A DNA stretch of 60,709 bases from Candidatus Kaiserbacteria bacterium RIFCSPLOWO2_01_FULL_45_25. GTDB lineage: Bacteria > Patescibacteriota > Minisyncoccia > Phycocordibacterales > UBA918. Shown here piece by piece: positions 10,520-60,645 of the stretch. Numbering within the stretch: position 1 is the first letter of the stretch; each line of letters opens with the position of its first letter. Position numbers and translations under genes: made by a program. The DNA lies in contig MFLT01000008.1 in the NCBI GenBank assembly GCA_001781415.1, positions 101,916 through 162,624 of the forward strand, written 5' to 3'. A model generated the notes under the pieces. It had not been told where the DNA came from, did no database searches, and saw nothing but the letters and a program-made list of their open reading frames with translations.

Positions 10520-11074
10520 TCAAGGCATGGCCAAAGAACGAACGGGTTCCCGATGCAGATAGGAAATCGCCTTCTGCACATAAATCGGGAACACAATCTC
10601 GTGGGCGGCCTCAGGCGTAAACCAGCGGAACTCGGCCTTGTTGGTATCGAGGTGAATCTGCTGTTCGTATTCCGGCCACACCTGGAAGCAGGTACTGAGG
10701 GTGAAATAGGCTTCGCCGCCCCCTGCACTCTCGGGGTTGCAAATCGACTGCAGCAAGACGAGCTTGGTGCCACAGGCTTCAGGCACAAACCCGAGCTCCT
10801 GCCGGCAGACGCGAGGCAATGCTTCAGCCGGGATTTCGCCTGGCAAGATGCGGCCGCCCGCAAAAAACCACTCGCCCGCCCAAGGAGCTTCACGACGCTT
10901 CGTGAGCAAAAACTCGAAGCCGCGTGCGCCATACCGCGTAGGAATGACATCCGCCGTGGGCGTGTTGGACCACTGGCGGACCGCGCCAGCAACCTCGTCC
11001 GGAATGAATTTCCGCGACCGAGCAAGCTCCGCAATCTGTTCAGCGGACTGAGGATAAAAAGGATCGTGTTGCAT
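10520..11074 (-). CDS. Second, divergent NUDIX hydrolase (GDP-mannose hydrolase-like); SD-bearing accessory gene
   Basis: TPTADV..FLLTKRREAPWAGEWFFAGGRILPGE..RQELG; start moved to ATG 11074, preceded by AAAGGA. Confidence 0.8.
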   Translation of the reverse strand: MQHDPFYPQSAEQIAELARSRKFIPDEVAGAVRQWSNTPTADVIPTRYGARGFEFLLTKRREAPWAGEWFFAGGRILPGEIPAEALPRVCRQELGFVPEACGTKLVLLQSICNPESAGGGEAYFTLSTCFQVWPEYEQQIHLDTNKAEFRWFTPEAAHEIVFPIYVQKAISYLHREPVRSLAMP

Positions 11075-11135
11075 GTCTCTCTTCCTTTCAGGTGTAAAAA
11101 ACAAAAAATCGGACCAATGTCCGAGCCCAACCAGA

Positions 11136-11163
11136 ATTATGGGATATTCCATACATAAGTCAA
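11136..11163 (-). promoter_or_regulatory. sigma70-type promoter of the reverse NUDIX gene
   Basis: TTGACT-16 bp-CATAAT on the minus strand. Confidence 0.65.
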
Positions 11164-11214
11164 GCAACCCCTTTTGTTCTTATCTTGTTAGAATAAGTGA
11201 TATCATAAAAACTT

Positions 11215-12153
11215 ATGGAAACAACATCTAAAATTTACGTAGCCGGTCATCGCGGTCTCGTGGGCTCTGCTATTGTACGAGCACTAACAACCCAAGGCTT
11301 TACCAATCTCATTACGCGCACAAGTAAAGAACTGGATCTCACCAACCAAGTAGCAGTGAGTGAATTTTTCTCAACAGAAAAGCCTGAGTATGTTTTACTA
11401 GCGGCAGCCAAGGTGGGCGGAATCATGGCCAACAAAACCTACCCCGCTGAATTCATATACCAAAACCTCCAGATTCAAAACAACGTCATAGAGAACGCCC
11501 ACAAAAACGACGTCAAAAAACTTCTCTTCTTGGGAAGTTCTTGTATCTACCCAAAGATGGCTCCACAACCAATTAAAGAGGAATATCTTCTTACTGGTGA
11601 GCTTGAACCATCAAACGAGGCGTATGCCATTGCCAAGATTGCTGGTATCAAAATGTGTCAGTCATATAACACACAGTATGGAACAAACTACATCAGTGTG
11701 ATGCCGACCAACCTCTATGGTGAAAACGACAACTTCGACCTAGAGACCTCACACGTCCTCCCTGCCCTAATCCGGCGCTTTGACGAAGCCAAGACCAACA
11801 ATCTTCCTAGTGTCACCCTCTGGGGCTCTGGCACACCAATGCGTGAGTTCTTGTATGTAGACGATTTAGCTGATGCCTGTGTCCACCTCATGCAGACCTA
11901 CGACCACAGCAACGAGATTGTAAACATCGGCACTGGCGAAGACGTCACTATTAAAGAATTGGCCGAGACCATTGCCGCCACAATTGGCTACACCGGCACC
12001 CTAGAGTGGGACACCACTAAGCCAGACGGCACCCCACGCAAACTCCTCGATGTATCAAAACTCCACTCTCTTGGTTTCAAGCACAAAATCTCACTTGAAG
12101 ACGGTATCAAAAAAACCTACCGGTGGTATAAAGAAAATAACCCTGTAAAATAA
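11215..12153 (+). CDS. fcl: GDP-L-fucose synthase
   Basis: [61 protein letters not shown]. Confidence 0.98.
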
Positions 12154-12159
12154 CTGGTC

Positions 12160-12849
12160 ATGTCTCACACGACAGTAACAGACTTTACACATATTGAACT
12201 GTCTTCACACATAAAGACAGTTCTTCTTGATTTAGACAACACCTGCTACCAATACGACCCGTGCCACCAAGCTGCCATGCAAGACTTCAGGCAGGCTCTA
12301 GAAAGTATCGCTGGTCCTATTCCTGACTTTGATACGCTATATAAAGCAGCGCAGCAACAAGTGAAAGTCCGCATCCCCACTCATGCCGCCAGCCACAGTA
12401 GAGTTCTCTACGCTCAAGCCCTATGCGAGCTCATTGGTCGGACCGACGCCCATATCCATGCAGCCCACTTAGAAAAAGTCTACTGGGATACCTTCCTTAG
12501 CACTATGCAAAAAACTGCTGGGTTAGACGCTTTTCTTGCGCATTGCCGAAAAAGTGATACAACAGTTGTAGTTGTTTCTGACCTTACTACCACCATTCAA
12601 TGCCAAAAGCTGGTCGCTCTACATATTGCAGAAAATATAGACTTTTTAGTTACTGCTGAAGAAGTGGGTGCAGACAAACCTGACCCAAAGCCCTTTTTGG
12701 TAGCTCTAGAGAAAGCTGGGGGCGATATACAGACATCGATAGTAATTGGAGATAACTATGAACGCGACATAGAAGGAGCTATGGCTCTTGGCATCGCCAG
12801 TATTCTGATTACTCATGACACAAAAAATCAAACAACTCCTGTACGATAA
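12160..12849 (+). CDS. HAD-superfamily phosphatase
   Basis: Motif I LDLDNT, motif III DKP, motif IV GDNYERD. Confidence 0.9.
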   Translation: MSHTTVTDFTHIELSSHIKTVLLDLDNTCYQYDPCHQAAMQDFRQALESIAGPIPDFDTLYKAAQQQVKVRIPTHAASHSRVLYAQALCELIGRTDAHIHAAHLEKVYWDTFLSTMQKTAGLDAFLAHCRKSDTTVVVVSDLTTTIQCQKLVALHIAENIDFLVTAEEVGADKPDPKPFLVALEKAGGDIQTSIVIGDNYERDIEGAMALGIASILITHDTKNQTTPVR

Positions 12850-16111: not shown

Positions 16112-16741
16112 TTAAAGACCACTAGCCTCCCACTGCGGTGCTTCTTCGAGAGAAGTCATAACGGCTGTTGGCGAAAAATTGAGAGCCTTCATCTCAGCAA
16201 CGTACGCCGCGATATCTGCCGGTCGACCCCACCGCTCGGGACAAACCAAACAGGTCTTAAAGCCCTGCAAGCGACGCACAATATCTGCGTCAAGCGGAAG
16301 TTGAGTGTTGGTATCGATCCAGACCCAATCGAGAAGCGGCTGTCCATCGACTACCTGTGCCTCGACTGCCTCAATAGGCTCAGCTTCGCTGTAACGAACA
16401 GCAATCTTCCTGACGCCTTCTTTGCGCGTAGCCCGGTAAAGATAAGGGAACTCGACATCAAGCAGGAAGTAGTCGCTTATGCCATAACTTTCGACCAAAT
16501 CCATCGCTACTTGCTCGTAGCCAGCCTCCTTCAGATTGAGGATGATGCCGCCAGTCAGACCACGATCGACGTAAGCCTCGAGAAAAGTCTCAAGATCTAC
16601 GTATTCGATGTCACTTTTCAGCGGATCATGATTCAGCAGCATTCGCTCGCCCCAGCCACGAATATCAATTTCAACCCCAAAGTGTTGTGGGACACGAGCC
16701 AGCTTTTCCAAGGTGTTAACTCTGTGTGCAAATATTTTCAT
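16112..16741 (-). CDS. Glycerophosphodiester-phosphodiesterase-like (PI-PLC/GDPD fold) protein; SD-bearing accessory gene
   Basis: AHRVN..GVEIDIR..LNHD motifs, WVWID, CLVCPE; AGGAG 5 nt before ATG; TTGACA at 16817-16822. Confidence 0.75.
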   Translation of the reverse strand: MKIFAHRVNTLEKLARVPQHFGVEIDIRGWGERMLLNHDPLKSDIEYVDLETFLEAYVDRGLTGGIILNLKEAGYEQVAMDLVESYGISDYFLLDVEFPYLYRATRKEGVRKIAVRYSEAEPIEAVEAQVVDGQPLLDWVWIDTNTQLPLDADIVRRLQGFKTCLVCPERWGRPADIAAYVAEMKALNFSPTAVMTSLEEAPQWEASGL

Positions 16742-18652: not shown

Positions 18653-19552
18653 TCAGGCGGTCATCAACACTTCCTTGAAAATCGTGACCAACCGCTCGGC
18701 GGTCTCGGCATTGTTGGCCCCAATCATGAAGTTGGCGTCCATGACCGAGAGCGGGACGACCTCTTGCAAAGTGCCACCCTTGTTGCTGAAACTCTGCACA
18801 ACTCCTCCAGCTTCAGTCACCAACAGTCCCGGCGTGATGTCGTGCGGACCACCACGGCAGGTAGTGATAACCCCCGCCACGGAGTTCCGTCCCAGCGCGA
18901 GCAGAGCGTAATGTCCGCAGTTGGTACCCATGGCATACGTGATGCCGATATCGTTGAGGGCGACCATGAGCCGTCCCCAAGTTGCCGGTGAAGTAACCGG
19001 ATGGTCCTTCAGAGCAAAGCCGTGGTAGCAGTCGACCAAGACGACCGAGCCAGAGCCAAACTGACCCGCCCAGACCTTGGTTTCTTCCGCCACATGCAAG
19101 TCTGCTTCGAGATCACCACTGCTGTAGAAAGCAAAGGTGCCCGAACCTTCCTCAGCAAACATCACCTTGCCAGTAGCGGGCTCACCGACCACGCAAGCCG
19201 TCACCGTCTTGCGTTTGATGTCATAGAGAGCCACGCTCACGGTTGAGGTGGGAGCGCCGATGGCAAAGGGCTTAGAGCCATCCAGCGGATCGACCAGAAA
19301 GACCAAGTCCTGCTTACCGCCGCCCTGATCGACAAACCCCACCTCCTCCGACCACACGTCGTAAGGAGATTGCTTCAACACCGCGAGTATGGCCGCTTCG
19401 CTCACCTTGTCCCATTTGGTGACCACGGTGTTTTGACCATCACCTTGCTTGGTCACGACCTGGCCCACGGCACTACGTTGACCAAGACGAACCTGAGCCA
19501 TACCGGCCAGAGTCGCCTGAATCATCGTTTGCATCACTTTAGTTGAACTCAT
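18653..19552 (-). CDS. Divergent inositol monophosphatase (FIG superfamily) protein; SD-bearing accessory gene
   Basis: VTKWD..SE, WSEE, LVDPLDGS motifs; GAGG 5 nt before ATG. Confidence 0.8.
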   Translation of the reverse strand: MSSTKVMQTMIQATLAGMAQVRLGQRSAVGQVVTKQGDGQNTVVTKWDKVSEAAILAVLKQSPYDVWSEEVGFVDQGGGKQDLVFLVDPLDGSKPFAIGAPTSTVSVALYDIKRKTVTACVVGEPATGKVMFAEEGSGTFAFYSSGDLEADLHVAEETKVWAGQFGSGSVVLVDCYHGFALKDHPVTSPATWGRLMVALNDIGITYAMGTNCGHYALLALGRNSVAGVITTCRGGPHDITPGLLVTEAGGVVQSFSNKGGTLQEVVPLSVMDANFMIGANNAETAERLVTIFKEVLMTA

Positions 19553-19679: not shown

Positions 19680-20312
19680 CTAGGTCGTCAGCAGGTCGTA
19701 GGTCGTCCCGACAAAGGTACCTTGCGAGACAAACTCCAGCGGCCGTTTTTGGAGCAGCACATTCCAGTCCTCGACCACCTTCGTCAGCCACACTGCAGCT
19801 GCGATGGAATAATTAAAGCGCTGGATGCGCGCCACAGTGGAATGAAAGATAGGCAAGGGTTTTGGCACACCATCATGTTCAGTCATGACCTGGGTCGCCC
19901 AGCCGCGCCATTCGGAAACAGCAGCCGGCACCCCTTCATTCATGAGCACAATGTTGCCGCCGCCATCCAGCACCAAACGATTGAAGGTCAACAGGTGGCT
20001 ATCAACGTAGTCAACTCCCGATTCGAGTTCTGACTGCGCTTCATGTCCACCTGCAGCGACCTGAATCGTCACATGGTGTGGGAAATCGCGCCGAGCCATG
20101 AAGAATGAGTAGTGTTGACCTTCTTCCAGACGTCCCAAATCTCGCAAGAGCTCGGATAATCCACCATTCAAATCCTTCAACTTCACCGCCACAATCAAGT
20201 CATTGCGGAGGACTTCGCTGACTCCAGGAAACAATGGGATCGTTCCATTCTGCAGCTTCTCCACGCCGGCCTGATGACTGGCATCATAGCGATCTTTGAA
20301 AAAAGCTTTCAA
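19680..20312 (-). CDS. 2H-phosphoesterase superfamily (LigT-like) protein; SD-bearing accessory gene
   Basis: Two HxT motifs (PHHVTIQ, IFHSTVA) about 85 aa apart; TTG start with AAGGAG 6 nt upstream. Confidence 0.7.
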   Translation of the reverse strand: MKAFFKDRYDASHQAGVEKLQNGTIPLFPGVSEVLRNDLIVAVKLKDLNGGLSELLRDLGRLEEGQHYSFFMARRDFPHHVTIQVAAGGHEAQSELESGVDYVDSHLLTFNRLVLDGGGNIVLMNEGVPAAVSEWRGWATQVMTEHDGVPKPLPIFHSTVARIQRFNYSIAAAVWLTKVVEDWNVLLQKRPLEFVSQGTFVGTTYDLLTT

Positions 20313-20431
20313 TTGGCTCTCCTTGAAAAGGACCGATTAGCACTATGCGTCTCGTATCTATTACAGATTAAAACATACTTTTATACATTTGTATATACAT
20401 GACGATAGACTGTATACTAAGTCTAATACTC

Positions 20432-20842
20432 ATGCGAAAAACTTTTGAAATATTCACGCTAAACTTTTTTACAAAAAACTTTGCTACGTTTTTTTGTATT
20501 GGCGTTACTACTGCCCTTTTTGACTACTTATTATATATTTTTCTCCTATCACACGATTGGCCGATGCTGCTGGCTAAATCTTTAGCTTCAGCAATTGCTG
20601 TGGTATTTAATTACTTACTCAATTCTAAATTTAATTTTGGCAAGGTCCATACCATGAGCTTAAAACACCTAGGCTATTATGGAATTTTGTATGTTTTTCT
20701 CATCCTTATTCATACACTATTTAACCAAGGATTGTTTATCGTCCTAAACAATGTCAATATAGCTGTATTTGGGGCACTATGTATTTCAACTTTTGTGAAT
20801 TACATAGGTGTCAAAAAGTTTTTCAATCATTTTCGTAACTAA
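20432..20842 (+). CDS. GtrA-family small lipid-linked sugar flippase
   Basis: Four TM helices, F..IGVTTALFDY, AVVFNYLLNSKFNF, FVNYIGVKKF; start moved to ATG 20432. Confidence 0.85.
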   Translation: MRKTFEIFTLNFFTKNFATFFCIGVTTALFDYLLYIFLLSHDWPMLLAKSLASAIAVVFNYLLNSKFNFGKVHTMSLKHLGYYGILYVFLILIHTLFNQGLFIVLNNVNIAVFGALCISTFVNYIGVKKFFNHFRN

Positions 20843-20856
20843 TAATTTTATTCTGT

Positions 20857-21552
20857 ATGTTGTTTGAACTCGCAAAAAAACTAAGCTTTATTCAAAACAT
20901 TGTGGTGGATATGCAAACATCACTACATCCTTCCATCATGCACAATCTTGGGAAGATTGAAATGATTAAGAAAGCCATGTGGCATTGTGAACTAGAAGGT
21001 ATAACTGGCGACTACTTCGAGTTTGGAATCTATGAGGGCACTTCATTGTACGCAGCTGTCAAAGCTCACAAAAAAATAAACAGTGCGTACAAGCGAAACT
21101 TCTACGGTTTTGACTCTTTTGATGAAGGCTTTAAATATTTTGACACCAAGGACAAGCATCCTTATTTTAAGGAGGGAGACTTTGTAAGTTCATATGAAAA
21201 GGTGTTACGAAGATTTCGAAAATTCCCTCACGTAAAATTGATTAAAGGATATTTTGAAGAAACCACAACCACTCCTGAAGCAAAAAATATTTACGGGGAC
21301 AACAAATGTGCCATCATTTTTATTGACTGTGACTTGATGCACCCTGCTGGTGTTGCACTTGAGTATGTATACCCAATACTGCAGCCTGGCTCAATCATTA
21401 TTCTGGATGATTACTTTGCCTACAAGGGAGCTGAGGACCTAGGTACCAGTGGTGCCTTACGCGCTTTTCAAGAAAAGCACCCTACGGTTAAGGTACGAGA
21501 ATTTTCTGATTATGGATACGGAGGTAAATCTTTTGTGGTAACTAGTTTATAA
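20857..21552 (+). CDS. TylF/MycF (macrocin O-methyltransferase) family protein
   Basis: GDYFEFGIYEG, YGFDSFDEG, IKGYFEET, FIDCDL, PGSIIILDDY. Confidence 0.88.
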   Translation: MLFELAKKLSFIQNIVVDMQTSLHPSIMHNLGKIEMIKKAMWHCELEGITGDYFEFGIYEGTSLYAAVKAHKKINSAYKRNFYGFDSFDEGFKYFDTKDKHPYFKEGDFVSSYEKVLRRFRKFPHVKLIKGYFEETTTTPEAKNIYGDNKCAIIFIDCDLMHPAGVALEYVYPILQPGSIIILDDYFAYKGAEDLGTSGALRAFQEKHPTVKVREFSDYGYGGKSFVVTSL

Positions 21553-21568
21553 ACATAATTTTATAGGT

Positions 21569-22279
21569 ATGAAGTTATCTATAGTAATTCCCTGCTACAA
21601 CGAGGCAGAGAATATCCCTAAATTAATCCGAGCATACGCTGAGGTAATCACTCGGAACGACATTGAGATTATCTTGATCAACAACGGATCGACTGACAAC
21701 ACAGCCGCACTTCTCACCGAACTTGCTCCACAACACTCACCTTGGCTTCATGTAGTTACTGTACCGGTGAATGAAGGCTACGGGTTTGGTATTCTGCAAG
21801 GCCTCAGGGCCGCTCAAGGTGAGTTTATTGGTTGGACCCACGGTGATCTACAAACACCCCCCGAGGACGTTTTAACTGCCCTTAGCATTATTGAGTCAAA
21901 AGGTAGCCCTACTGACATTTTTGTAAAAGGAAATCGTTACGGACGTCCTCTTTTTGATCTTATCTTTACTTGGGGAATGAGTGTATTTGAAACTATTTAC
22001 ATGGGGACAGTGTTATATGACGTGAACGCACAACCAAACGTATTTCACAGAAGTTTTTTTCAAGACTGGACAAACCCGCCACACGACTTTGCCCTTGATT
22101 TATACGCCCTATATATGGCCAAGAAAAAAGGCATCAAAATCATACGCTACCAGGTACCGTTTCTTAAGAGAGTACATGGCGAATCAAAATGGAATACTGG
22201 CTTTGGTGCAAAGTGGAAATTTATCAAGAGAACAATCTCGTTTAGCGTTATGTTGAAAAAACGCCTCCTTACAAAATAA
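21569..22279 (+). CDS. GT2 glycosyltransferase, polyprenyl-phosphate glycosyltransferase (GtrB/DPM-like)
   Basis: SIVIPCYNE, NNGSTD, NEGYGFGILQG, WTHGDLQ, R.HGESKW. Confidence 0.88.
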   Translation: MKLSIVIPCYNEAENIPKLIRAYAEVITRNDIEIILINNGSTDNTAALLTELAPQHSPWLHVVTVPVNEGYGFGILQGLRAAQGEFIGWTHGDLQTPPEDVLTALSIIESKGSPTDIFVKGNRYGRPLFDLIFTWGMSVFETIYMGTVLYDVNAQPNVFHRSFFQDWTNPPHDFALDLYALYMAKKKGIKIIRYQVPFLKRVHGESKWNTGFGAKWKFIKRTISFSVMLKKRLLTK

Positions 22280-22291
22280 TCCCGGTTTTAC

Positions 22292-24031
22292 ATGATTAAT
22301 CAAATATTTTCAAAAAATGCTCTGACTTATGTTTTTATAGTCATTGTTTTTGTTAGTTTTTTGATACATCTTAATTTTAGACAATCTCATTTTCAAGAAT
22401 TGGATTCATCTGGTGTCTATTATGTCTTAAATAATTTTCCGACAAGTGCTATGAATTTCATAAGCATGTCATACATGAGTGAAAATTTAAAAATTTTCAA
22501 GACAAGAGAAGCAGCAGAAAATTTTTTTAATAAAGAAATAGTTGATAAAAATTTAAGAGCAGTACTGGGAGCAAAATATAATGACAAAAATAAAGAACTG
22601 ATAATATCAGAGATCTATCAGGGTAAATCAATATTTTTCTATTTGCGGGCTGCTGAAATTTTAGCTTTAAATAAAATAGTACACTTGCTACCAATCCCTT
22701 TGTTTACCAGTATAGTACAACCGCTTTCATCGACATATTCTCCTGGTCCTGGTTTTTTCTACGGATTCATGGGTGCACACAGCTCTTATGATGACTTCAT
22801 GAAATTTGCTGGAACTTTTCAGCTTTTGATATTTCATTTAGGTGTCTTAATCATGTTCTTTACTGTTTCATTTTTGAGTAAAAATCGATTTACTGCACTG
22901 ACAGTTGGATCATTGATGCTATTTTCATATTCTTTATATTCTTATGCCCATCACATGGGAAGCGTTACATGGAATATATTTGTACCTACTATCTTCATAG
23001 GGTTATTACTCTATTACTATAACAAGGAAAGAGAGGATATTTTGCGTAGAGTTTCGATTATATCTTCATGGCTCCTACTTTTTAGTTACCTAGTTCCCTA
23101 CTTATGGTTTGCTACCATAACTTCAATAGTAGTAATTGATAAAAATAGCGGTATTAGTGTATTCAACTTAGAGTATCTAAAAAAGATTGTTATAAGTCAG
23201 AAATGGTTCCTAGTATCTTCCGTTGTTTGTTTGCTATTAATCCTTCCTCCAAGCCAAGGTTTTCGAGGTTCAGCAGAATCATTAGTGGAATTTATTCAAT
23301 TTTTCTATTACGGACTATTAAATTACTTTTATTTATACGGAAACCTTACTTATCTCTCACTAATCGAATTCTGGGTATTTTTTACCCTGTTCGTGAGCGG
23401 TCTATATGTTGGTTATAAAAAGATCAAGGGTTCAGAAAAAAAACTGATCTGGTATTTTATAGTATCTTTACTAGCGCTCTATTCTGTATCGGTTGTATTT
23501 AACATTCTCAGCTTTATACCTTCTCGTCATATATTATTTTTGACACCAGTATTATTTATCATCATTTCGTTTGCAATCGATGTTTTATACAAGCGACTAG
23601 ATATGGTGTTGTTAGTATTATTTAATGTACTGTTGATATCAGCTGGTTTTTATTCAGTAATTGCCAGCCAAGACGTAACCTTTGACCAAACGCTTCATGC
23701 CAAAGTTCCAACATACATAGACTCAGTTATAGTGTACGGTGAAAATTATCCTTTAAAATATAGGTTCGAAGACTCACATCACGCGTTCATAAAGAAAGGA
23801 AATGTTTTATTGAGTGAACAAATAAAGCCCAATGTAAGATATCTCTACGTGAGTCAACTTGGCTGTTTTGAGGATTTGCTCCAAGATGCAAAAGACGAGG
23901 GTATACATGTTGTTCTTGAGAACAAAAAGCAATACGTGACCGACCAAAAATTTATTGCTTTTGATCCTAGTGACTTTGTATTCAATAGCCCAAATAATTA
24001 TTGCCAGGCTGAATTTATTTGGAAGGAATAA
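22292..24031 (+). CDS. Polytopic membrane protein, putative GT-C glycosyltransferase (GtrX-like) or polymerase
   Basis: About 11 TM segments, acidic QELDS after TM1, periplasmic loop and tail; very AT-rich; follows GtrA and GT2. Confidence 0.55.
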   Translation: MINQIFSKNALTYVFIVIVFVSFLIHLNFRQSHFQELDSSGVYYVLNNFPTSAMNFISMSYMSENLKIFKTREAAENFFNKEIVDKNLRAVLGAKYNDKNKELIISEIYQGKSIFFYLRAAEILALNKIVHLLPIPLFTSIVQPLSSTYSPGPGFFYGFMGAHSSYDDFMKFAGTFQLLIFHLGVLIMFFTVSFLSKNRFTALTVGSLMLFSYSLYSYAHHMGSVTWNIFVPTIFIGLLLYYYNKEREDILRRVSIISSWLLLFSYLVPYLWFATITSIVVIDKNSGISVFNLEYLKKIVISQKWFLVSSVVCLLLILPPSQGFRGSAESLVEFIQFFYYGLLNYFYLYGNLTYLSLIEFWVFFTLFVSGLYVGYKKIKGSEKKLIWYFIVSLLALYSVSVVFNILSFIPSRHILFLTPVLFIIISFAIDVLYKRLDMVLLVLFNVLLISAGFYSVIASQDVTFDQTLHAKVPTYIDSVIVYGENYPLKYRFEDSHHAFIKKGNVLLSEQIKPNVRYLYVSQLGCFEDLLQDAKDEGIHVVLENKKQYVTDQKFIAFDPSDFVFNSPNNYCQAEFIWKE

Positions 24032-24074
24032 ATAAGAATATAATCTGTTTTATCAAAGACAGTTTTCTGAAAAC

Positions 24075-25376
24075 ATGAAAAATTTACCACACCGAACTCT
24101 TCAGACTGTTTTACCCAACTGGGCCTACGAACGCCTAAATGAATATTTGAATAGTGAAGGTTTAAGACGATATGCCTCAAACACGGCCTGGGCACTAGCA
24201 GCCAAAATTTTTAGTGTAATTATGTCATTTTTTGTGACCATATACCTTGTTCGGTATCTTGGTCCAGAAAACTACGGAAACCTCAGTTACGCTGTGAGTT
24301 TTGTTGGAATCTTCTCTGTACTCAGCACACTAGGTATTGATAACGTCCTATATCGTGAGCTCATAGTCTATCCAGAAAAACGAAATGAGTATCTCGGTTC
24401 TGCATTTTTGCTTAAACTTTCTGCTGGCTTTATTGCTTGTGTCTTCACTATATTTGGAGCCATCTTTTTTGCAACTGATGACGTATCTCAGCTCATTATT
24501 ATTATGTTGGCCGCTACGTTCATTTTTAATTCTTTTAATGTTGTTATTTATGAATTTCAGGCAAACGTAAAGCAAAAGTACCCTTCATTGGTATCACTAG
24601 CAGTTGTCTTTATTTTAAACCTGTTAAAACTCTCTGTAATAGCCTTGGATCAAGGAATTATATACATCGGTGGTATTTTACTTTTGGAATCAGTCTTGTA
24701 CGCTACATTCTTTATATTTATTAGGATTAGACACTACGGTACTTTTCGAGACTGGACTTACAACAAAACAATTGCGGTGAGTATACTTCGTGACTCTTGG
24801 CCGTTTATCTTTATCGCCCTCTTTGCCTCGGTATATGCACGAATCGACCAAGTGATGCTGAAGCACCTCATCGACAGCTCAGCTGTAGGTATCTACGACG
24901 CAGCCGTAAGAATTGCTGAGGTTTGGTTATTTGTACCTGGTATCATTGCTTCTTCTCTTTTTCCGGCCATCGTGAACGGTAAAAAGACCAGCGTTTACGA
25001 GTATAAAAAGCGACTCCTCAATTTAACCATTTTTTTAGTAATCATCGCTGGGGCATTAGCTACCTTTTCTTCATTCATTGCAAAGCCGTTGATACATACA
25101 CTGTACGGTCCAGCATTTATTGAGAGCGCTGGTGTATTTACTATTTATATATGGTCAGGGGTTTTTGTCTCTATCAGTCTTGTATTGCATTATTTCCTGC
25201 TAGCAGAAAATAAACGCAAAGTGATTTTCTTTAGTTCGCTCGGTACCATGATTACCAATATTGCGCTTAACGTACTGCTTATCCCCGTCTATGGAATTAC
25301 TGGAGCCGCCTTGGCTACCCTCATTTCTTATGCGATTTTGATTTTACCGATTATACTAATATTCAAACTTAAATAA
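24075..25376 (+). CDS. wzx: Wzx-type polysaccharide flippase
   Basis: RYLGPENYGNLSY, LSTLGID, YARIDQVML, VGIYDAA, LNVLLIPVYGITGAA. Confidence 0.92.
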   Translation: MKNLPHRTLQTVLPNWAYERLNEYLNSEGLRRYASNTAWALAAKIFSVIMSFFVTIYLVRYLGPENYGNLSYAVSFVGIFSVLSTLGIDNVLYRELIVYPEKRNEYLGSAFLLKLSAGFIACVFTIFGAIFFATDDVSQLIIIMLAATFIFNSFNVVIYEFQANVKQKYPSLVSLAVVFILNLLKLSVIALDQGIIYIGGILLLESVLYATFFIFIRIRHYGTFRDWTYNKTIAVSILRDSWPFIFIALFASVYARIDQVMLKHLIDSSAVGIYDAAVRIAEVWLFVPGIIASSLFPAIVNGKKTSVYEYKKRLLNLTIFLVIIAGALATFSSFIAKPLIHTLYGPAFIESAGVFTIYIWSGVFVSISLVLHYFLLAENKRKVIFFSSLGTMITNIALNVLLIPVYGITGAALATLISYAILILPIILIFKLK

Positions 25377-25378
25377 AT

Positions 25379-27012: not shown

Positions 27013-27013
27013 T

Positions 27014-44329: not shown

Positions 44330-44356
44330 GGTGTCATTATACCTTACGACCACAAC

Positions 44357-45700: not shown

Positions 45701-45705
45701 ACCTA

Positions 45706-46324: not shown

Positions 46325-46352
46325 ATAATACAAGCCAATAGGTTAATGTCAA
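46325..46352 (-). promoter_or_regulatory. sigma70-type promoter
   Basis: TTGACA-16 bp-TATTAT on the minus strand, overlapping the rsmI stop. Confidence 0.65.
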
Positions 46353-47073: not shown

Positions 47074-47101
47074 AAAGGCGAAGCGCAAGCGCTTCGCCTT
47101 T
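47074..47101. terminator. Terminator-like hairpin
   Basis: AAAGGCGAAGCGC-AA-GCGCTTCGCCTTT. Confidence 0.75.
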
Positions 47102-47123: not shown

Positions 47124-47585
47124 TCAATCAATCGGACGACGGAACGGGAGGATGTTTTGAGAGCCCTCAAAGAGTGCCCCCGGCATTTCTCCACCGAGGA
47201 TGTCCTTCATCGGATCATCTTCGAGCCCGCGGTAGTGAGCCGGATGAAACATCATCCCGAAACCAAACACCTTGGCCTTGTGCTCTTTGAGCACTTGCTC
47301 AACAAACGCGACCCGTTCCTCGCGCTCAATCAGGTCGACCCCATCCGGCACATGCACCTGAGCGCAATACGGGTCACGCGCGAGCACGTAGTGGCTCATG
47401 AGGTCGCACGGCCGCACCTTCTTCAGGCCCGATTGTGCTCCTTGAGGGAACACGTAGCGGTACTGAATACAGTTGGTGTGCAACCACTCCCCCAGCCACA
47501 AAAGCAGCTGGAGCTTCAGAACGGTGAACCAGGTCAGTTCGCCAGCTTGGTTGACTTGGCCAGTCATGACAGTGAGAGCAATCAT
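47124..47585 (-). CDS. Hypothetical protein; SD-bearing accessory gene
   Basis: ATG at 47585 with AGGAG 7 nt upstream; own promoter and terminator; no family recognised. Confidence 0.65.
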   Translation of the reverse strand: MIALTVMTGQVNQAGELTWFTVLKLQLLLWLGEWLHTNCIQYRYVFPQGAQSGLKKVRPCDLMSHYVLARDPYCAQVHVPDGVDLIEREERVAFVEQVLKEHKAKVFGFGMMFHPAHYRGLEDDPMKDILGGEMPGALFEGSQNILPFRRPID

Positions 47586-47653: not shown

Positions 47654-47682
47654 AGTATGCCAGGATTTTACTAGGTTGTCAA
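47654..47682 (-). promoter_or_regulatory. sigma70-type promoter
   Basis: TTGACA-17 bp-CATACT on the minus strand, overlapping the murC end. Confidence 0.65.
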
Positions 47683-52202: not shown

Positions 52203-52433
52203 TTAACACTTGCCCCAGAGGCCGCGGAAGATACGCCGCGGACCGCTGTCGTTCGGCAGGGCCTTGGCCACCAGGAAGGTGGCGATAGCCCAAAAGATCA
52301 GTGAGCCCCATCCTTGTCCGGTAACGGACAGGAAGGCGTAGGTGGTGATGAGTTGCCAGAGGCAAATCATCAACAGGATGATGGTTGCGAGAACCAGGAC
52401 GAGCCTGATTGTCTTACAAAAGTGCACGTTCAT
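52203..52433 (-). CDS. Small two-TM hypothetical protein; SD-bearing accessory gene
   Basis: Two hydrophobic helices; AGGAG 6 nt before ATG. Confidence 0.7.
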   Translation of the reverse strand: MNVHFCKTIRLVLVLATIILLMICLWQLITTYAFLSVTGQGWGSLIFWAIATFLVAKALPNDSGPRRIFRGLWGKC

Positions 52434-52539: not shown

Positions 52540-52575
52540 AAATAGGCCAGGAACGCAAGCGTTCCTGGCCTATTT
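52540..52575. terminator. 17-bp-stem terminator hairpin
   Basis: AAATAGGCCAGGAACGC-AA-GCGTTCCTGGCCTATTT. Confidence 0.85.
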
Positions 52576-52597: not shown

Positions 52598-52843
52598 CTA
52601 GCGCTGTTTGCGGCTGTCTAGGCGCTGCCAGACTCGCTCGTTGAGCTTCATGAGCCAGAAATTGATTCGATTAAGAACCCGTCTCCAGTTGAACTTCAGG
52701 TTGATGCACATCAATCCGACCAAGAACATGATGCCAAACAAGGAGAGGACAAACGCGCCGGAGTGTTTGTCCGGTTGCGGTCCAGCATAGATGCAAGCAT
52801 ATATGCCAAATGCGCAAACGGCCAGTAGGATACTTCGATACAT
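52598..52843 (-). CDS. Small two-TM hypothetical protein with a basic tail; SD-bearing accessory gene
   Basis: Two hydrophobic helices; GGAG 8 nt before ATG; TTGACA at 52901-52906. Confidence 0.7.
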   Translation of the reverse strand: MYRSILLAVCAFGIYACIYAGPQPDKHSGAFVLSLFGIMFLVGLMCINLKFNWRRVLNRINFWLMKLNERVWQRLDSRKQR

Positions 52844-54380: not shown

Positions 54381-54417
54381 ATACTTATAAGCATAACATT
54401 GATAATCTCCAAAACAA

Positions 54418-54446
54418 CAAAACCCGCCTTATAAAGGCGGGTTTTG
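54418..54446 (-). terminator. Terminator of the 16S rRNA transcript
   Basis: CAAAACCCGCCTT-ATA-AAGGCGGGTTTTG, about 230 nt past the 16S 3' end. Confidence 0.8.
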
Positions 54447-54520
54447 TACAACATCGTTATGCAAAAATTTGCAAAGGAGAAGCTTCATTTAGTAGCGAGC
54501 TACCAAATTCACTTGAATTC

Positions 54521-54536
54521 TCTTTTGTCTTATCCT
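54521..54536 (-). other. 3' strand of the 16S processing stalk
   Basis: TCTTTTGTCTTATCCT on + is the exact reverse complement of 56233-56248. Confidence 0.8.
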
Positions 54537-54676
54537 AAAAGTCCGGTCTTTCCCTGGGGTCTGATACCATTTCAGAGAATTGAGTATCATCTCTCGTTAT
54601 ATGCTCAATTGAGGCATATAACATCGACCAATTAGCCGTGAGTTAAAGGGTCACCCCAATAATCCGACGTGTCCAA

Positions 54677-56136
<1,460 letters not shown>

Positions 56137-56669: not shown

Positions 56670-56728
56670 GTCTTTTGCCTTGATAAAGGGTTTCTCACCC
56701 CTTTAGACAGTTTCTTAAGCAAAGAAAA

Positions 56729-56772
56729 GACCGGCAGTTGTTTTCCCTTTGAGAGGAAAACAACTGCCGGTC
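56729..56772. terminator. 18-bp-stem hairpin insulating the rRNA promoter
   Basis: GACCGGCAGTTGTTTTCC-8 nt-GGAAAACAACTGCCGGTC. Confidence 0.8.
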
Positions 56773-56795
56773 CGGTCGATTTAGGGTTCAAAACC

Positions 56796-56909
56796 CTACA
56801 GCAATCCAGCGGCCAGGAGCGCCATGCTGAGAACGGCGCAAATCAGTACCAGCTTGAGCCCACCCTTCCAGCTGAACCACTCTTCGTAGTCATCTTTGTC
56901 TGTCTCCAT
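56796..56909 (-). CDS. 37-aa single-TM small protein, not in the ORF track; SD-bearing
   Basis: METDKDDYEEWFSWKGGLKLVLICAVLSMALLAAGLL*; AAGGAG 6 nt before ATG. Confidence 0.6.
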   Translation of the reverse strand: METDKDDYEEWFSWKGGLKLVLICAVLSMALLAAGLL

Positions 56910-56932
56910 GATGCACTCCTTGAAAAAGAAGA

Positions 56933-57697
56933 TTACCGATACAAAAGCACTCGCGCACCTTTGATGGCCGGGCCAGAGAGTGAGAGGAGGTTCAGCAGCT
57001 CATCGTTGAGCAACCGCACACACCCTAGTGTCTCATCTGCGAGGAAGTTCTCAGCGTCGTACCCACCGGTGCCGTGTATGTGTCGTGTGACCCAACTCGG
57101 CCGCAACTCCGCACCAACTTTCCAGTCAATGAGGATTTTGGCAACGCCCATGGCGTTGAGCTCATGGCCGGGTTCGAAACAACCCGGCGGCAGCTCTGGG
57201 TACTTCAGGCGAGCACTTTTGGTCGGACACCACCAAGGGTTTTTATCAACCGACTTGATGTATCCTTCCACCGCATCAGCATGAAGCTGATGCGGTTGCA
57301 CCGTGACCACCACCCAACCTTCAATCGGACTGACGATTCCCTTCTCGTCTTGGTGATAGAGCAGCAATTTCTTGCTAGCAGTATCAACGAGTAGGTTAAG
57401 GCCAGTCACAAGTGGTCGCGGCGGTATCTCCGGCGGTGTGAACCGCCCACCCTCAATTTCTTGAGAGATGGTTTCCCAGCATTCATCAAGTTGGGTATCA
57501 AGACACCCTTCTCGTTGTTGTTGGGTTTGATGAACAATGAAGTCACCAAGCTGTCTCGACATCACTCGCGACTCCGCAGCCTGAGCTGGGAGCGAGAACG
57601 ATATCCAGAACGCAAACGATAGCAGGGCCAACACGAGACCCTTAAGTGCAAGCATGACCCACCGGCCAAACTTGGTTCGAGATTGGGTCAAAGGCAT
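56933..57697 (-). CDS. YkuD-family L,D-transpeptidase; SD-bearing accessory gene
   Basis: N-terminal TM/signal; NPWWCPT, NAMG, HIHGT and TLGCVRL with catalytic His and Cys intact; start moved to ATG 57697 (GGAGGT 6 nt upstream). Confidence 0.88.
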   Translation of the reverse strand: MPLTQSRTKFGRWVMLALKGLVLALLSFAFWISFSLPAQAAESRVMSRQLGDFIVHQTQQQREGCLDTQLDECWETISQEIEGGRFTPPEIPPRPLVTGLNLLVDTASKKLLLYHQDEKGIVSPIEGWVVVTVQPHQLHADAVEGYIKSVDKNPWWCPTKSARLKYPELPPGCFEPGHELNAMGVAKILIDWKVGAELRPSWVTRHIHGTGGYDAENFLADETLGCVRLLNDELLNLLSLSGPAIKGARVLLYR

Positions 57698-57767
57698 GCA
57701 GGAACCTCCAGTACAAAGAATTGAATAAAGAATTGAATTGCGAAAGAACAAACACCAATTACTGGTG

Positions 57768-57776
57768 ATTATACCA
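57768..57776 (-). promoter_or_regulatory. Extended -10 promoter
   Basis: TG-G-TATAAT on the minus strand. Confidence 0.6.
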
Positions 57777-57879
57777 CAAATCTACAAAAAAGCTACAAAA
57801 GAAAAGACCCTAGCAAGTATGTTAGCTAGGGCCTTAGAGGGCTTGGTCAAGAACAAAGGGACAAACGAAAGGAAGAAGA

Positions 57880-58815
57880 TCAGGCCACCTCGGGACCAGG
57901 CGTGAAGACCGGCGTAATGCGAGATCTCAAATGATCACCAAACTGCCCGGGTGCGGCTGCAGTTTTGGCAGCACCACCACGACGCGACAAAGCGACGAGA
58001 CTGAAAATAATCGCCAGCACGGAAATCAATCCGAGCACAGCAATCGCTATCCACAACTTGCCCAAGTGCTTGGCAAGACCATCGACCTTTTCTGAGGACG
58101 TTTTTGCCATGTTGAATGCCGTTTGTGCTTGACCACCAACGGCAGCGAGGCCAGTCGTGTGATGATTGACAGCAAGCTCGAGCTTCTCCACCTTCCCTTC
58201 CACCACTTTGACGCGGTTGGTCAGGTCGACGATCGTTTGCGTTTCCGCAACGATCTTCGCCACATCACTTTTGAGCGCAGCTCGGCTGAGAGCCGTCTGC
58301 AACTCGCCGATGCGTCGATTGGTAGCGCCGAACTTCTTGTTCAAAGCCTCCAGCTGTTGCTGGACGTTATCGACAGTCACGACCGGGGCCGGGGGCGTTT
58401 GCACTTGGGGTGCAGCCGCGGCCGGAACCAGCGTGGTCGGCGGAGCAGAGGTTGTTGCCACTGCCACCACCTTCACGTCCGGCAACTTGAGGTTGCCCGC
58501 GTATTTACGGAACTCACCAACCGTCATTTCTGCCGGCAGGTTGTTGACCACCATGTTGAGGCTATGGAAGCCCACGCGCGAGACACTGCCCTGTTGGGCC
58601 TCATCCAGTGCGTTGTACATGGCGTTACTTACGCCGACCGTCTGGAAACGGTCAGAGCCGGGTTTCATCAACCCATCAGCCACCAGCGCCTGGGAGAACT
58701 GTTTCCAGCCCTCACCATCCGCGTAGTCCGACAGATCCACCGTCTTGGCCGAAGCGGCGAAGGCGATGGACACCATCAGCAGAAATGCGGCGAAGCCGCG
58801 GAAAATCTTCTTCAT
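57880..58815 (-). CDS. Secreted, membrane-anchored protein with a Pro/Thr linker and coiled coil
   Basis: Signal peptide (..IAFAASA), heptad region, C-terminal TM; GGAG 7 nt before ATG. Confidence 0.8.
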   Translation of the reverse strand: MKKIFRGFAAFLLMVSIAFAASAKTVDLSDYADGEGWKQFSQALVADGLMKPGSDRFQTVGVSNAMYNALDEAQQGSVSRVGFHSLNMVVNNLPAEMTVGEFRKYAGNLKLPDVKVVAVATTSAPPTTLVPAAAAPQVQTPPAPVVTVDNVQQQLEALNKKFGATNRRIGELQTALSRAALKSDVAKIVAETQTIVDLTNRVKVVEGKVEKLELAVNHHTTGLAAVGGQAQTAFNMAKTSSEKVDGLAKHLGKLWIAIAVLGLISVLAIIFSLVALSRRGGAAKTAAAPGQFGDHLRSRITPVFTPGPEVA

Positions 58816-58870
58816 GTTTCTTCTCCAAATTGGTTGAAGGCGGGGTTGGGTTTAACCCCGCCCCCACCAA

Positions 58871-59452
58871 TTAGTTGGGCTTGAACTTGCAGGTGCTGCA
58901 GGTTCCGCCACCAGTGACATTCGCACTGGAGTTGGACGAGCTTCCGCTCACCGCGAGCGCCCCGGCGTTGCCGCCGCGACCGCCTTGGCCACCTTGGCCA
59001 CCTTCGCCGCCAAAAGCGACGTTGTTGTTGATGGTGTCAATGCAGCCGCCGTTGGTGCAAATCTTTCCCTGCTTGCGTTGCAGGGCAGATTGGACCACGT
59101 AGTTCGCGACACCATTAACACCAGCACCGACCCCAACCTTGGTCAGCTCACCCGCCAAAGCAGGCGACCCTTGCACGGTCAGTTGGTCGAACTCCTTGCA
59201 GGCGTTCTCTTGCACAATCAGCGCCGGGTCCTTCTCATAGGCTTTCGCCTTTTCGAGACTGATCTGCTTCTTGAAGGTGCATTTCTTGGCCTCTGACGTG
59301 GTCATGCCGTCCGCACCCGGACTGACAGATGACGCAGTCATCATGCTGGTCCGTGTCGGGTCGACTTTTGCCACGCTGGCGCAACCGGTCAAAACGACCG
59401 AAGCCACAAGCAGAGACCACAGCGCGATGCGCTGGAAAAATGAAACTTTCAT
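58871..59452 (-). CDS. Lipoprotein with a Gly-rich, Cys-containing C-terminus
   Basis: Lipobox LTGC; GGQGGQGGRGG; CTNGGC and CSTC; AGGAG 6 nt before ATG. Confidence 0.8.
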   Translation of the reverse strand: MKVSFFQRIALWSLLVASVVLTGCASVAKVDPTRTSMMTASSVSPGADGMTTSEAKKCTFKKQISLEKAKAYEKDPALIVQENACKEFDQLTVQGSPALAGELTKVGVGAGVNGVANYVVQSALQRKQGKICTNGGCIDTINNNVAFGGEGGQGGQGGRGGNAGALAVSGSSSNSSANVTGGGTCSTCKFKPN

Positions 59453-59488
59453 GACTATCTCCTAGATGAATGGTGGGAAGGAAGGAAA

Positions 59489-59872
59489 TTACTCGCAGAC
59501 CCTGGCGTAGGTTGTAGTCTGACCACCAGGGATGATTGCACCTTGTCCAGGTGAAAACCATGGTCCCAGACACGAATTCAAAATTTGGCCGTGGATTTCA
59601 ATCACTTGCGAAGCAGTGGTAGTGGCCCCGATCAAAACCCATTTGCAGGTCTTTGTAGGGGTAGCCGTCACCACAGGTGGCACAACCTTCTTCGGCGGCG
59701 AAGCCTTGGAGGGTGGAGCCTTCTTTGCAGGGGGCGACATCACTGTCGGCACCCCGGGTTTCTTGCCATCAGCTTGCGCTGGCGTCATGTTGAGCACGAA
59801 GCCCATCATGACCATGAGGAGCGCGAGCAGAATCTGCCCGCACTTGGTTTGGGTCTTTGCGATTGCTCGCAT
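59489..59872 (-). CDS. Secreted Pro/Lys-rich hypothetical protein
   Basis: Signal peptide ending PAQA, PPAKKAPPSKASPPKK, three mature Cys; AAAGGAG 6 nt before ATG. Confidence 0.75.
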   Translation of the reverse strand: MRAIAKTQTKCGQILLALLMVMMGFVLNMTPAQADGKKPGVPTVMSPPAKKAPPSKASPPKKVVPPVVTATPTKTCKWVLIGATTTASQVIEIHGQILNSCLGPWFSPGQGAIIPGGQTTTYARVCE

Positions 59873-59933
59873 ATCGAACTCCTTTCGTAGTTGTCAAAGA
59901 ACGCGGGATTGCGTCCCTTTAAATTCATTAAGT

Positions 59934-59962
59934 ATACTACCATACTTTTACACAAAAAGCAA
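59934..59962 (-). promoter_or_regulatory. sigma70-type promoter for the 59872-57880 genes
   Basis: TTGCTT-17 bp-TAGTAT on the minus strand. Confidence 0.55.
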
Positions 59963-60002
59963 GGGCTAGAGCATCTTTATCTATAGCCCTATTTTAAAAA
60001 AG

Positions 60003-60027
60003 AACCCGTCTCAGAAAGAGACGGGTT
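60003..60027. terminator. Terminator hairpin
   Basis: AACCCGTCTC-AGAAA-GAGACGGGTT. Confidence 0.75.
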
Positions 60028-60075
60028 GGGTTGGATACGGGCGATCAAGCCCGCTTTGGTCAAATGACCAGGACC

Positions 60076-60498
60076 TTATTGGCCCTTCGTGAAGCCAACC
60101 ATGGCTTCGGCGTTGGTCACACTCGAGACACCAGCCTGGACACCGGAACCGCGAGAAAACGCGGCGCCGATGGCAGTGACCTTCTGACGAGCAGAGCCCT
60201 GTACGGTGTACGTGGCCTCGCCACAGCCGCCGGGGCAAGCGCTTCCAGCTGCATCGAGGGTGATGTTCATCACAGACGAACCTTCTTTGGTCACCTTCGA
60301 GAAGCCCTTCTGGCCTTCAAAGACCGAGATGGCGGTGCCAGCGGTGCCAGCCACACCATGAATGGTCAGGCCGGTGCCGACGGGGTTGGTGCTGGGCGTG
60401 CAACCACTGCAGGTCTGGGCCATGGCGGGTGCCGAAGCAAAGGCCAGGGTGGTCAGGGCGGCGGCGATGGCGGTACGGGGGAAAGAACGGAAGTTCAT
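60076..60498 (-). CDS. Secreted Gly/Ala/Thr-rich protein with CxxC and CxxxC motifs
   Basis: Signal peptide ending PAMA, CSGC, CPGGC; AAGGAG 6 nt before ATG. Confidence 0.78.
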   Translation of the reverse strand: MNFRSFPRTAIAAALTTLAFASAPAMAQTCSGCTPSTNPVGTGLTIHGVAGTAGTAISVFEGQKGFSKVTKEGSSVMNITLDAAGSACPGGCGEATYTVQGSARQKVTAIGAAFSRGSGVQAGVSSVTNAEAMVGFTKGQ

Positions 60499-60645
60499 GG
60501 CAGGCTCCTTAAAGGTTGCCAGGTTGAAGTGTGGAAGTTGCCGAGATGGCGACCTCCGGAAAGCCCCGCCGAAGCGAGAGCTTTGAAGGTTGGGGCTTTT
60601 TTGAATTAGCCACCTGGGACCCTCACTTCAACAGAACTAAGCAGG

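Follow-up and report, generated by a model that had tools for sequence, protein, structure and literature searches.

Shine-Dalgarno-type start motifs before flexible genes of a Paceibacteria clade whose 16S rRNA lacks the anti-Shine-Dalgarno sequence

In the established model of initiation, the function of a Shine-Dalgarno (SD) motif depends on pairing with the CCUCC of the 16S rRNA (the anti-SD). What, then, are SD motifs doing in a genome whose 16S rRNA has no such partner? The question is raised by a 60,709-nucleotide (nt) stretch of Candidatus Kaiserbacteria bacterium RIFCSPLOWO2_01_FULL_45_25 (positions 101916-162624 of contig C8, hereafter the window), in which genes with SD motifs share the minus strand with a 16S rRNA gene lacking CCUCC. 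The genome (G000) has 0.96 Mb in 13 contigs and is 98% complete, and the closest named relative of one window protein comes from a metagenome-assembled genome labelled 'Candidatus Paceibacteria bacterium'. An earlier note, made from the letters of the window alone, had listed 14 minus-strand starts preceded by a purine motif at 5-8 nt, with an A 5' of GG in 11 of the 14. Both counts were confirmed, with the refinement that the motif of the start at 11074 is AAAGGAA and not GGAG. The open reading frames (ORFs) concerned have a GC content at third codon positions (GC3) of 0.52-0.78, compared with ~0.41 in leaderless core genes. The data favour a stable, native two-tier expression layout of an order-wide clade of Paceibacteria (candidate phyla radiation, CPR) without an anti-SD over a passing state left by recent transfers. 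We give roughly even chances to the proposal that AGGAG works as a start signal for the leadered mRNAs of this clade and is read in a non-canonical way.

An SD-bearing gene class and a 16S tail without CCUCC

Gene calls and start choices in this work are home-made heuristics, and the ORF set was made for this analysis. GGAG begins at positions -11 to -9 in 34 of the 180 ORFs with GC3 of at least 0.55, against about 0.5 at each of the other positions, while no GGAG peak was found upstream of the ORFs with GC3 below 0.45 (n = 766). Scored genome-wide against GC3, as the earlier note had suggested, SD frequency rises from <2% at GC3 <0.45 to 20-25% at GC3 >0.55. Before ORFs of at least 60 codons, GGAG-N5-8-ATG occurs 98 times where ~25 are expected, so that a frequency no higher than background, which the note had named as a possible outcome, can be set aside. 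The counts at distances (d) of 5, 6, 7 and 8 nt between GGAG and ATG are 18, 40, 28 and 12, with ~6 at each other distance, giving a peak at 6-7 nt. An unbiased k-mer enrichment in the GC3-rich set returned GGAGA, AGGAG, GGAGG and AAGGA; GGAA was not enriched. The nearest species, G010, has its own SD class of equal size (92 vs ~28 expected). The SD-bearing class in G000 comprises about 70-100 GC3-rich genes (7-10% of genes), which are often lineage-restricted. Across the order, AGGAG-N6-7-ATG lies above a reversed, admittedly crude, control in 112 of 121 genomes (8526 vs 5216). Nearly all leadered genes have a purine block before the start, and in most of the genes with a long upstream region and no SD, 13 nt or less separate a -10 box from the ATG. 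A chimeric assembly is an unlikely source of the class because SD genes of this kind also lie among core genes in assemblies made independently, one example being a 692-kb contig from another family.

One core gene also carries a strong block: a probable rplT (L20) at C6:7069-7389 on the minus strand has AAAAGGAGGAUUG before its ATG, identical in G010. This block possibly overlaps the end of the preceding gene or belongs to an L20 operator.

The partner expected of these motifs is absent. A single small-subunit (SSU) rRNA gene is present in the assembly, and six congeners, single-contig and closed genomes among them, gave one SSU match each; neither a partial SSU gene nor the second 16S with CCUCC for which the earlier note had advised a search is found in any of them. 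Beyond a normal helix 45, the 16S rRNA reads GGAUUAAUUCCAAUUGGAC, which lacks CCUCC and is unchanged in ~15 genomes of the same genus, where its CC is invariant. The order survey covered 121 genomes from 116 genera, with tails readable in 87, and 0 of these 87 have CCUCC; the majority show ..UUUCAA.. or ..AUUCAA.., and a few lack C at this site. Absence of CCUCCU from the 16S 3' end has been described as a lineage trait of a Parcubacteria subgroup in which SD helices are presumably not formed (Tsurumaki 2022, RNA 28:1041, PMC9297842). Like the organisms in the part of that paper on which we draw, G000 and the order tails (87/87) lack CCUCCU; that part is confined to the loss in rRNA, with no mention of leaderless promoters or of a conserved SD class.

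The former anti-SD bases covary with the bases that follow them across families, as UUCC-AAUU-GGA, UUCA-AAU-UGAA and UUUC-AAUUU-GAAA (54671-54689 and the 87 tails), which suggests that the tail is folded into a mini-hairpin and is not free. Because the bases covary as a mini-hairpin or palindrome across families, the tail looks remodelled rather than merely decayed.

Could a canonical anti-SD be hidden? It might sit in a second SSU gene missing from the assembly, arise through RNA editing or a different mature 3' end, or be supplied in trans by an RNA with CCUCC. The SD consensus and the strict G at its position 4 argue for a CUCC partner. Against this stand the single SSU matches in a 98%-complete genome and its congeners, and each candidate partner that was examined was rejected. 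CUUCUCCUUUG, ~200 nt downstream of the 16S gene, lacks conservation, even against the relative with 98% identity in the 16S region, and the conserved trailer behind the gene holds no CCUCC. CUCC inside the 16S rRNA occurs only at universal helical sites. CCUCC conserved between G000 and G010 is found only in rRNA, tRNAs and tRNA-linked repeats, leaving no conserved small RNA that carries it, and no adaptor RNA complementary to the 16S tail was found. We regard a hidden canonical partner as highly improbable.

Outside the rRNAs and tRNAs, the CCUCC shared with G010 lies only in dispersed repeats, copies of which, with CCUCGCUCGCCUCC (GGAGGCGAGCGAGG on the other strand), are at C3:33674-33725, C3:55169-55247, C3:70681-70727 and C11:23696-23752. 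The trailer itself is ~85% conserved across the genus, with compensatory stem changes in the alignment, and matches no Rfam family at the gathering threshold. It forms several predicted hairpins and ends in AGGAUAAGACAAAAGAG, and the tail CCAAUUGG can pair with CUAAUUGG ~45 nt downstream in it. The 23S rRNA gene is unlinked from the 16S gene, 18 kb away on the same strand (C8:176122-180478); this gene (L031) spans 4357 nt against a model of 2925 positions and must therefore hold insertions of ~1.4 kb.

Leaderless core genes and leadered SD units

Low-GC3 genes are enriched at positions -16 to -4 in the words TATACT, TACAAT and ATAAT. A TANNNT box starts at -15 to -12 in 215 of 646 non-SD genes with ATG starts and in 0 of 46 SD genes, over a background of 2% per position. 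The core -10 box ends ~6-9 nt before the ATG, and its position weight matrix is an extended -10 (T-n-T-G-n-TAnnnT) with no -35. Because this promoter stands so close to the start codon, the core mRNAs are predicted to be leaderless; a -10 box abutting the ATG is the published signature of leaderless genes, and by this signature about a third of core genes are leaderless. The other core genes are mostly coupled, with overlaps or gaps of at most 20 nt. The AT-rich, SD-free upstream regions that the earlier note had reported for core genes were recovered, and their A/T-richness is that of promoters abutting the start codon. The two initiation regimes of that note hold genome-, genus- and order-wide, although it had not recognised the core regime as leaderless or coupled.

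An SD gene has a different predicted anatomy, that of a self-contained leadered unit made of a TTGACA/-10 promoter, a G-poor leader, AGGAG, the ORF and a terminator. Many SD genes have a TTGAC(A/T) -35 box and a TGTGnTA(t/c)TGT -10 box upstream of GGAG; a strict TTGAC-N-TANNNT match was found in 22 of the 98 SD cases of G000, and TTGAC is essentially missing upstream of non-SD genes. Two promoter architectures are seen genome-wide: the extended -10 without -35 in the leaderless core, and the TTGACA -35, essentially confined to SD units. The SD-unit promoters nevertheless have the host's own extended -10 (TnTGn-TAnnnT). Leaders are 35-55 nt long, contain 5-13% G and are C/A/U-rich with words like GTTCTTTCAACCA. 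In the 14 window genes, where unit anatomy was read, an intrinsic terminator follows each unit, and the units amount to eight single genes and one six-gene module in which every cistron has its own SD (Table 1).

Between the -10 box and GGAG lie anywhere from 19 to 68 nt, while the spacing of GGAG is tied to the start codon. Because the start codon sets the place of the motif while the promoter distance varies, AGGAGA is not an alternative -10 box of leaderless genes, and sigma-70-type promoters lie 20-50 nt upstream of it. A leader hairpin sequestering the SD was also rejected, since the predicted accessibility of GGAG equals that in shuffled leaders.

Table 1. Features of the window, with positions counted from its first nucleotide
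Feature	Position	Strand	Remarks
NUDIX hydrolase gene; SD-like AAAGGAAGAGAG before ATG; own TTGACT/-10 promoter and terminator	10520-11074	-	Absent from the syntenic site of G010
209-amino-acid (aa) gene; AGGAG 5 nt before ATG	16112-16741	-	G010 orthologue inverted
Inositol-monophosphatase (IMPase)-family gene; GC3 0.68; GAGG 5 nt before ATG	18653-19552	-	Syntenic orthologues read
210-aa gene; TTG start; AAGGAGA before start	19680-20312	-	4 orthologues
AT-rich glycan gene cluster; GC3 0.24-0.44; overlaps, short gaps or -10 boxes; no SD	20399-34597	+	
Leaderless-type core genes (examples); -10 box 6-8 nt before ATG: ggTATAATgacaccATG, gtTACAATagtaggtATG, tgTATACTgcaaacaATG	42827-45948	-	From the window gene table
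69-aa ORF; TTG start; AAGGAG; promoter TTGACA-16-TATTAT at 46325-46352; terminator downstream	46077-46286	-	
153-aa ORF; AGGAG; promoter TTGACA-17-CATACT at 47654-47682; terminator 47074-47101	47124-47585	-	
76-aa ORF; GC3 0.78; AGGAG; promoter TTGACT-N17-TACTGT with TGTGC upstream; terminator	52203-52433	-	
81-aa ORF; GGAG; TTGACA promoter; terminator 52540-52575	52598-52843	-	
Intrinsic terminator closing the 16S transcription unit	54417-54447	-	Read from the sequence
Structured trailer behind 16S, ~160 nt; genus-specific; no CCUCC	54515-54675	-	BLAST matches of congeners end near query position 381-388
16S 3' tail GGAUUAAUUCCAAU	54676-54689	-	AUUCC (54679-54683) at the place of E. coli CCUCC
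16S rRNA gene	54676-56136	-	Rfam RF00177, 1388 bits, full length
Six-gene GC3-rich module; own SD per gene; promoter 60646-60673; terminators 60003-60027 and 56728-56773	56796-60498	-	
Genes of the module	60076-60498, 59489-59872, 58871-59452, 57880-58815, 56933-57697 (YkuD-like), 56796-56909 (37 aa)	-	

The products of the window SD genes include a NUDIX hydrolase, an IMPase-family enzyme and a weak YkuD-like protein; the rest have no Pfam family. Signal-peptide-like N-termini are not enriched in SD genes (31% vs 34%). A PHROG scan of 10 window proteins gave two weak matches only (E 0.0009-0.005), to families of no known function. With no convincing PHROG match, and with core genes and the 16S gene as neighbours, a phage origin of the SD genes was rejected. 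The units resemble phage morons and other self-expressing cassettes in having their own promoter and terminator, variable slots and a distinct composition. They differ from them in that there is no prophage context and no integrase linked in the window, and several units are old residents with syntenic orthologues.

The combination of canonical -35/-10 boxes, SD and GC-rich codons would also be expected of T-DNA-like units meant for expression in the cell that hosts the episymbiont. The one point in favour of this idea is the mismatch between the signals of the units and the cell's own ribosome and core promoters. The products, in contrast, look like the organism's own envelope and housekeeping proteins (NUDIX, IMPase-family and YkuD-like proteins, signal-peptide-like N-termini), the units have promoters with the host-specific extended -10 and no linked transfer machinery, and no non-CPR genome yielded a homologue. 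That they serve expression in a host cell is therefore barely credible to us.

Several features of the module were noted in passing. The 37-aa ORF at 56796-56909 (METDKDDYEEWF...) has a counterpart of 38 aa with AAGGAG in three other contigs and, because of this conservation, is probably a real small protein gene. At 58816-58870 on the minus strand, between two cistrons and immediately before the SD of the 311-aa gene, lies a GC hairpin (GGGGCGGGGUUAAACCCAACCCCGCC) that is kept with compensatory changes in the orthologous modules of contigs L127 and L128 and could be an intercistronic processing or attenuation element. The 5' untranslated region (UTR) of gene 60076-60498 (60499-60645, minus strand, ~140 nt) is almost invariant across the same two contigs (..GGCAACUUCCACACUUCAACCUGGCAACCUUUAAGGAGC..), contains a terminator-like hairpin and may be a regulatory leader. 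Throughout the window (1-60709) the plus strand has a negative GC skew, and the 14 SD genes are all found on the G-rich minus strand, so within the window the SD genes may be co-oriented with replication.

Two layouts in one genome have precedents. In GeneMarkS-2 'group C' (Actinobacteria, Deinococcus), a -10 box abuts the start of first genes and a ribosome-binding-site (RBS) signal precedes the other genes (bioRxiv 10.1101/193490). The present genome is like these in combining a leaderless -10 signal with an RBS-type signal. Group C organisms keep a canonical anti-SD, which explains their SD class; the present genome has no anti-SD, and its SD class consists of flexible, GC3-rich monocistronic genes and not of operon-internal ones. 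Among Bacteroidota, and Flavobacteriia in particular, there are SD-scarce genomes with an occluded or lost anti-SD, and in Bacteroidia a few genes, rpsU among them, retain strong SDs (bS21 autoregulation; PMC10783764, category iv). The resemblance is that most genes have no SD and the anti-SD is unusable or mutated. The SDs of Bacteroidia are explained by a freed anti-SD, whereas the present genome has no CCUCC that could be freed, and its exceptional class makes up 7-10% of genes. Anti-SD loss in a Parcubacteria subgroup, dual leaderless/RBS layouts with an anti-SD and SD-scarce Flavobacteriia without CCUCC are thus known already; a full-text literature search found no paper linking leaderless genes, SD motifs and Patescibacteria, or describing SD-bearing genes in anti-SD-less CPR.

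Conservation and origin of the SD genes

Given that the motifs lack their usual partner, one may ask whether they are kept or are simply left over from transfer. G000 and G010 share ~70% nt identity in core genes and 98% in the 16S region, and their synteny is continuous, with most window SD units appearing as gaps in it. Only 8-13% of the GC3-rich SD genes have an orthologue in G010, compared with 65-77% of core genes. Among 121 genomes of the family, 2 have the IMPase-like gene, and gene 19680-20312 is present in 4 of 101 genomes of the genus. For the IMPase-like protein, 13 homologues were found (54-85% identity), followed by ordinary IMPases at ~30%, and the 311-aa module protein has 7 homologues in 5.8 billion sequences, the best one below 100% being at 65%. 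Homologues with a readable context show conserved synteny beside AT-rich genes with a -10 box at the ATG, and stay GC3-richer than their neighbours (e.g. 0.52 vs 0.33-0.46).

Where orthologues exist, most keep the motif. Gene 19680-20312 has TTG and an SD in four of four orthologues (54-100% aa identity), reading AAGGAGA, GAAGGAGA, TAAGGAGA and TGAGGAGA; non-ATG starts with strong SDs are thus conserved. The four syntenic orthologues of the IMPase-like gene (56-100% aa) read GAGG, GGGAGG, GGGAG and GAGGAG, each being GC3-richer than its neighbours. The six-gene module is conserved whole in three metagenome contigs at 46-65% aa identity, with GC3 of 0.5-0.7 beside AT-rich leaderless neighbours. 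Most of its SDs are kept, and genes C, D and F have AGGAG, GGAG or AAGGAG in all contigs. Between G000 and G010, GGAG or GAGG is retained in 7 of 8 intergenic cases with GC3 of at least 0.5, whereas chance GGAG before low-GC3 core genes (leucyl-tRNA synthetase and others), which served as an internal control, is mostly lost. SDs persist in syntenic orthologues at 54-75% aa identity between two genomes with verified anti-SD-less 16S rRNAs, while the flanking UTR is randomised. For the earlier note's question of whether orthologues keep the SD under selection, these cases speak in favour, while one gene, 16112-16741, loses it.

The main alternative at this point is that the SD units are a legacy of a laterally exchanged gene pool, with signals selected elsewhere (in anti-SD-bearing CPR, other bacteria, phages or plasmids); the SD would then be a passenger, and translation would proceed via the unstructured leaders. 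The sparse distribution and the slots absent from the nearest relative fit this alternative, as do the foreign-like composition in every genome examined (GC3 0.55-0.62 vs 0.31-0.43), the consensus AAGGAG, whose fit to a canonical tail is better than to the local tail, and the mosaic of module alleles between contigs with nearly identical flanks. Specifically, contigs L126 and L127 have nearly identical flanking core genes and clearly different module alleles (311-aa homologues at 65% vs 46%, and gene B with different N-termini), which suggests allelic exchange or very fast evolution of surface-type proteins. On the other hand, a search of 5.8 billion proteins found no close or non-CPR donors, which the earlier note would have counted in favour of transfer, and no near-identical donor copies: the best match below 100% is 85% (IMPase-like), and all are rare metagenome proteins. 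Homologues are scarce and confined to this clade, those whose surroundings were inspected adjoin AT-rich, leaderless-type genes in CPR-like contexts, the SD-unit promoters share the host's extended -10, and the whole order is without CCUCC while 112 of 121 genomes have the motif excess. Together with the retention of SDs between G000 and G010 in spite of a randomised UTR, these results make an explanation by legacy unlikely in our estimate, if still a serious competitor.

The SD-bearing genes, as judged from these comparisons, belong to the flexible genome but do not look like fresh imports, because orthologues at 46-85% identity keep high GC3 and SD while the UTR diverges. They resemble a recently transferred island in their atypical composition and absence from close relatives, and differ from one in having no near-identical donor copies. 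Of the earlier note's proposal of recent horizontal transfer with SDs not yet decayed, the patchy distribution stands, while the conserved orthologues, with SD and GC3 kept despite UTR turnover, do not fit.

Candidate readers of the motif and their meaning

If AGGAG works in these cells, with what does it pair? One answer, given in the earlier note, is residual pairing, in which GGAG would keep the canonical register and pair with the degenerate UUCC tail (G-C, G-C, A-U, G.U). The observed spacing matches SD/anti-SD geometry exactly, the genus has an invariant CC, and module gene B alternates between AAGGAG and AAGGAA, both of which can pair with U. Genomes with a UUCC tail also have a modestly larger AGGAG-N6-7-ATG excess than those with UUCA (55 vs 33 per Mb; Mann-Whitney p=0.005, without phylogenetic correction). 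However, GGAA would be the better partner of UUCC and has no positional peak, and most motifs have an A before GG, opposite an A of the tail. Real and shuffled leaders are told apart better by duplex energies with the canonical tail than by those with the local tail, and the upstream leader adds nothing. The covariation of the former anti-SD bases as a small hairpin also argues against their availability.

The comparison with other tails points in the same direction. In G240, the genome of another family with the 692-kb contig and the tail AUAUUUCAAAUUGA, GGAG peaks at d=6-7 (17 and 9 vs ~2), 25 of the 31 cases have A before GG and SD genes have a GC3 of 0.59 vs 0.39; the complements of its own tail (GAAA, TGAA, GGAA) give no peak. 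The same AGGAG at the same spacing thus accompanies both UUCCAA and UUUCAA, indicating that the motif does not track the species' own tail and speaking against residual UUCC pairing as its explanation. The excess persists even in genomes whose tails have no C there (G170, G230). The d6:d7 ratio is 0.69 for CC tails and 1.26 for C-only tails, in counts whose reversed-pattern control is confounded by codon phase; start-filtered counts give a mean spacing of 6.3-6.4 in G000, G010 and G240, with no shift. Residual pairing is accordingly improbable as an explanation. The situation is like canonical SD initiation in the enrichment of a purine motif 5-10 nt upstream of the start, and unlike it in that there is no CCUCC and the motif does not follow the tail. 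Pairing of leader CCAA with tail UUGG was considered separately and rejected, having no fixed register to GGAG, and shuffling of the leader leaves the duplex energy unchanged.

The reading that we favour, with AGGAG as a start signal in its own right, can be put as a two-tier scheme. The first tier would be the AT-rich core, leaderless from extended -10 promoters, with downstream genes coupled by overlaps; this regime can work without an anti-SD because neither the leaderless nor the coupled route needs one. The second tier would be the flexible genome, made of GC3-rich leadered units that start with ATG and sometimes TTG, and whose AGGAG would be kept by purifying selection in the CPR cell itself and read neither by canonical CCUCC pairing nor by residual UUCC. 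The motif, its spacing, class specificity and conservation and the missing anti-SD are observations; its action in translation, and the manner of it, we infer. In a first step, the ribosome would be loaded on the unstructured, G-poor leader, for which the encoded bS1-like protein with four S1 domains is a candidate. In a second step, the purine block at SD geometry would fix the start codon via a partner other than the canonical tail, candidates being a protein factor, an RNA factor and the platform cleft that the SD helix has vacated. A bolder version, which we hold only tentatively, extends this to the whole order: the SD would survive as a start signal read by a dedicated protein or RNA adaptor or by the vacated SD cleft, forming a separate, possibly switchable channel for the accessory and surface genome beside the leaderless core.

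Several points weigh against AGGAG as a working signal. No reader of the motif was identified among the SSU genes, the 16S trailer, the small RNAs and the adaptors searched, and to our knowledge no tail-independent SD reader is known in any bacterium. Conservation is also incomplete: module gene B has AAGGAT as well as AAGGAG and AAGGAA across contigs, the YkuD-like gene has TGGAGG here and GAAAGG elsewhere, and the orthologues of gene 16112-16741 in G010 and L053 are without SD. The sample of orthologues is small, and the anti-SD-less tail is verified for G000 and G010 but not for contigs L053-56 and L126-128. The persistent GC3 excess and the mosaic module alleles could fit frequent lateral exchange in which SDs are kept without a local function. 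Finally, SD motifs can exist without a role: the portion of a study of Haloferax volcanii used here describes SD motifs in 5' UTRs that have no part in initiation (PMC3986360). As described there, that archaeon resembles our genome in being mostly leaderless, with SD motifs in a minority of leadered transcripts; it differs in having an anti-SD, whereas the motifs described here are conserved among orthologues at fixed spacing without one.

A large natural clade has thus deleted the SD partner yet keeps canonical AGGAG at canonical spacing, under apparent purifying selection. If the motifs work, they would represent a new way of reading the SD, with consequences for how initiation works, for CPR gene prediction and for the expression of flexible genes in ultra-small symbionts. 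If they do not, the clade offers a natural experiment on the persistence of expression signals in a laterally exchanged gene pool. Either way, the two layouts provide a practical marker, in which leaderless, -35-less and AT-rich stands for core and -35/-10 with leader, SD and high GC3 stands for flexible, and which could sort core from flexible genes in these organisms.

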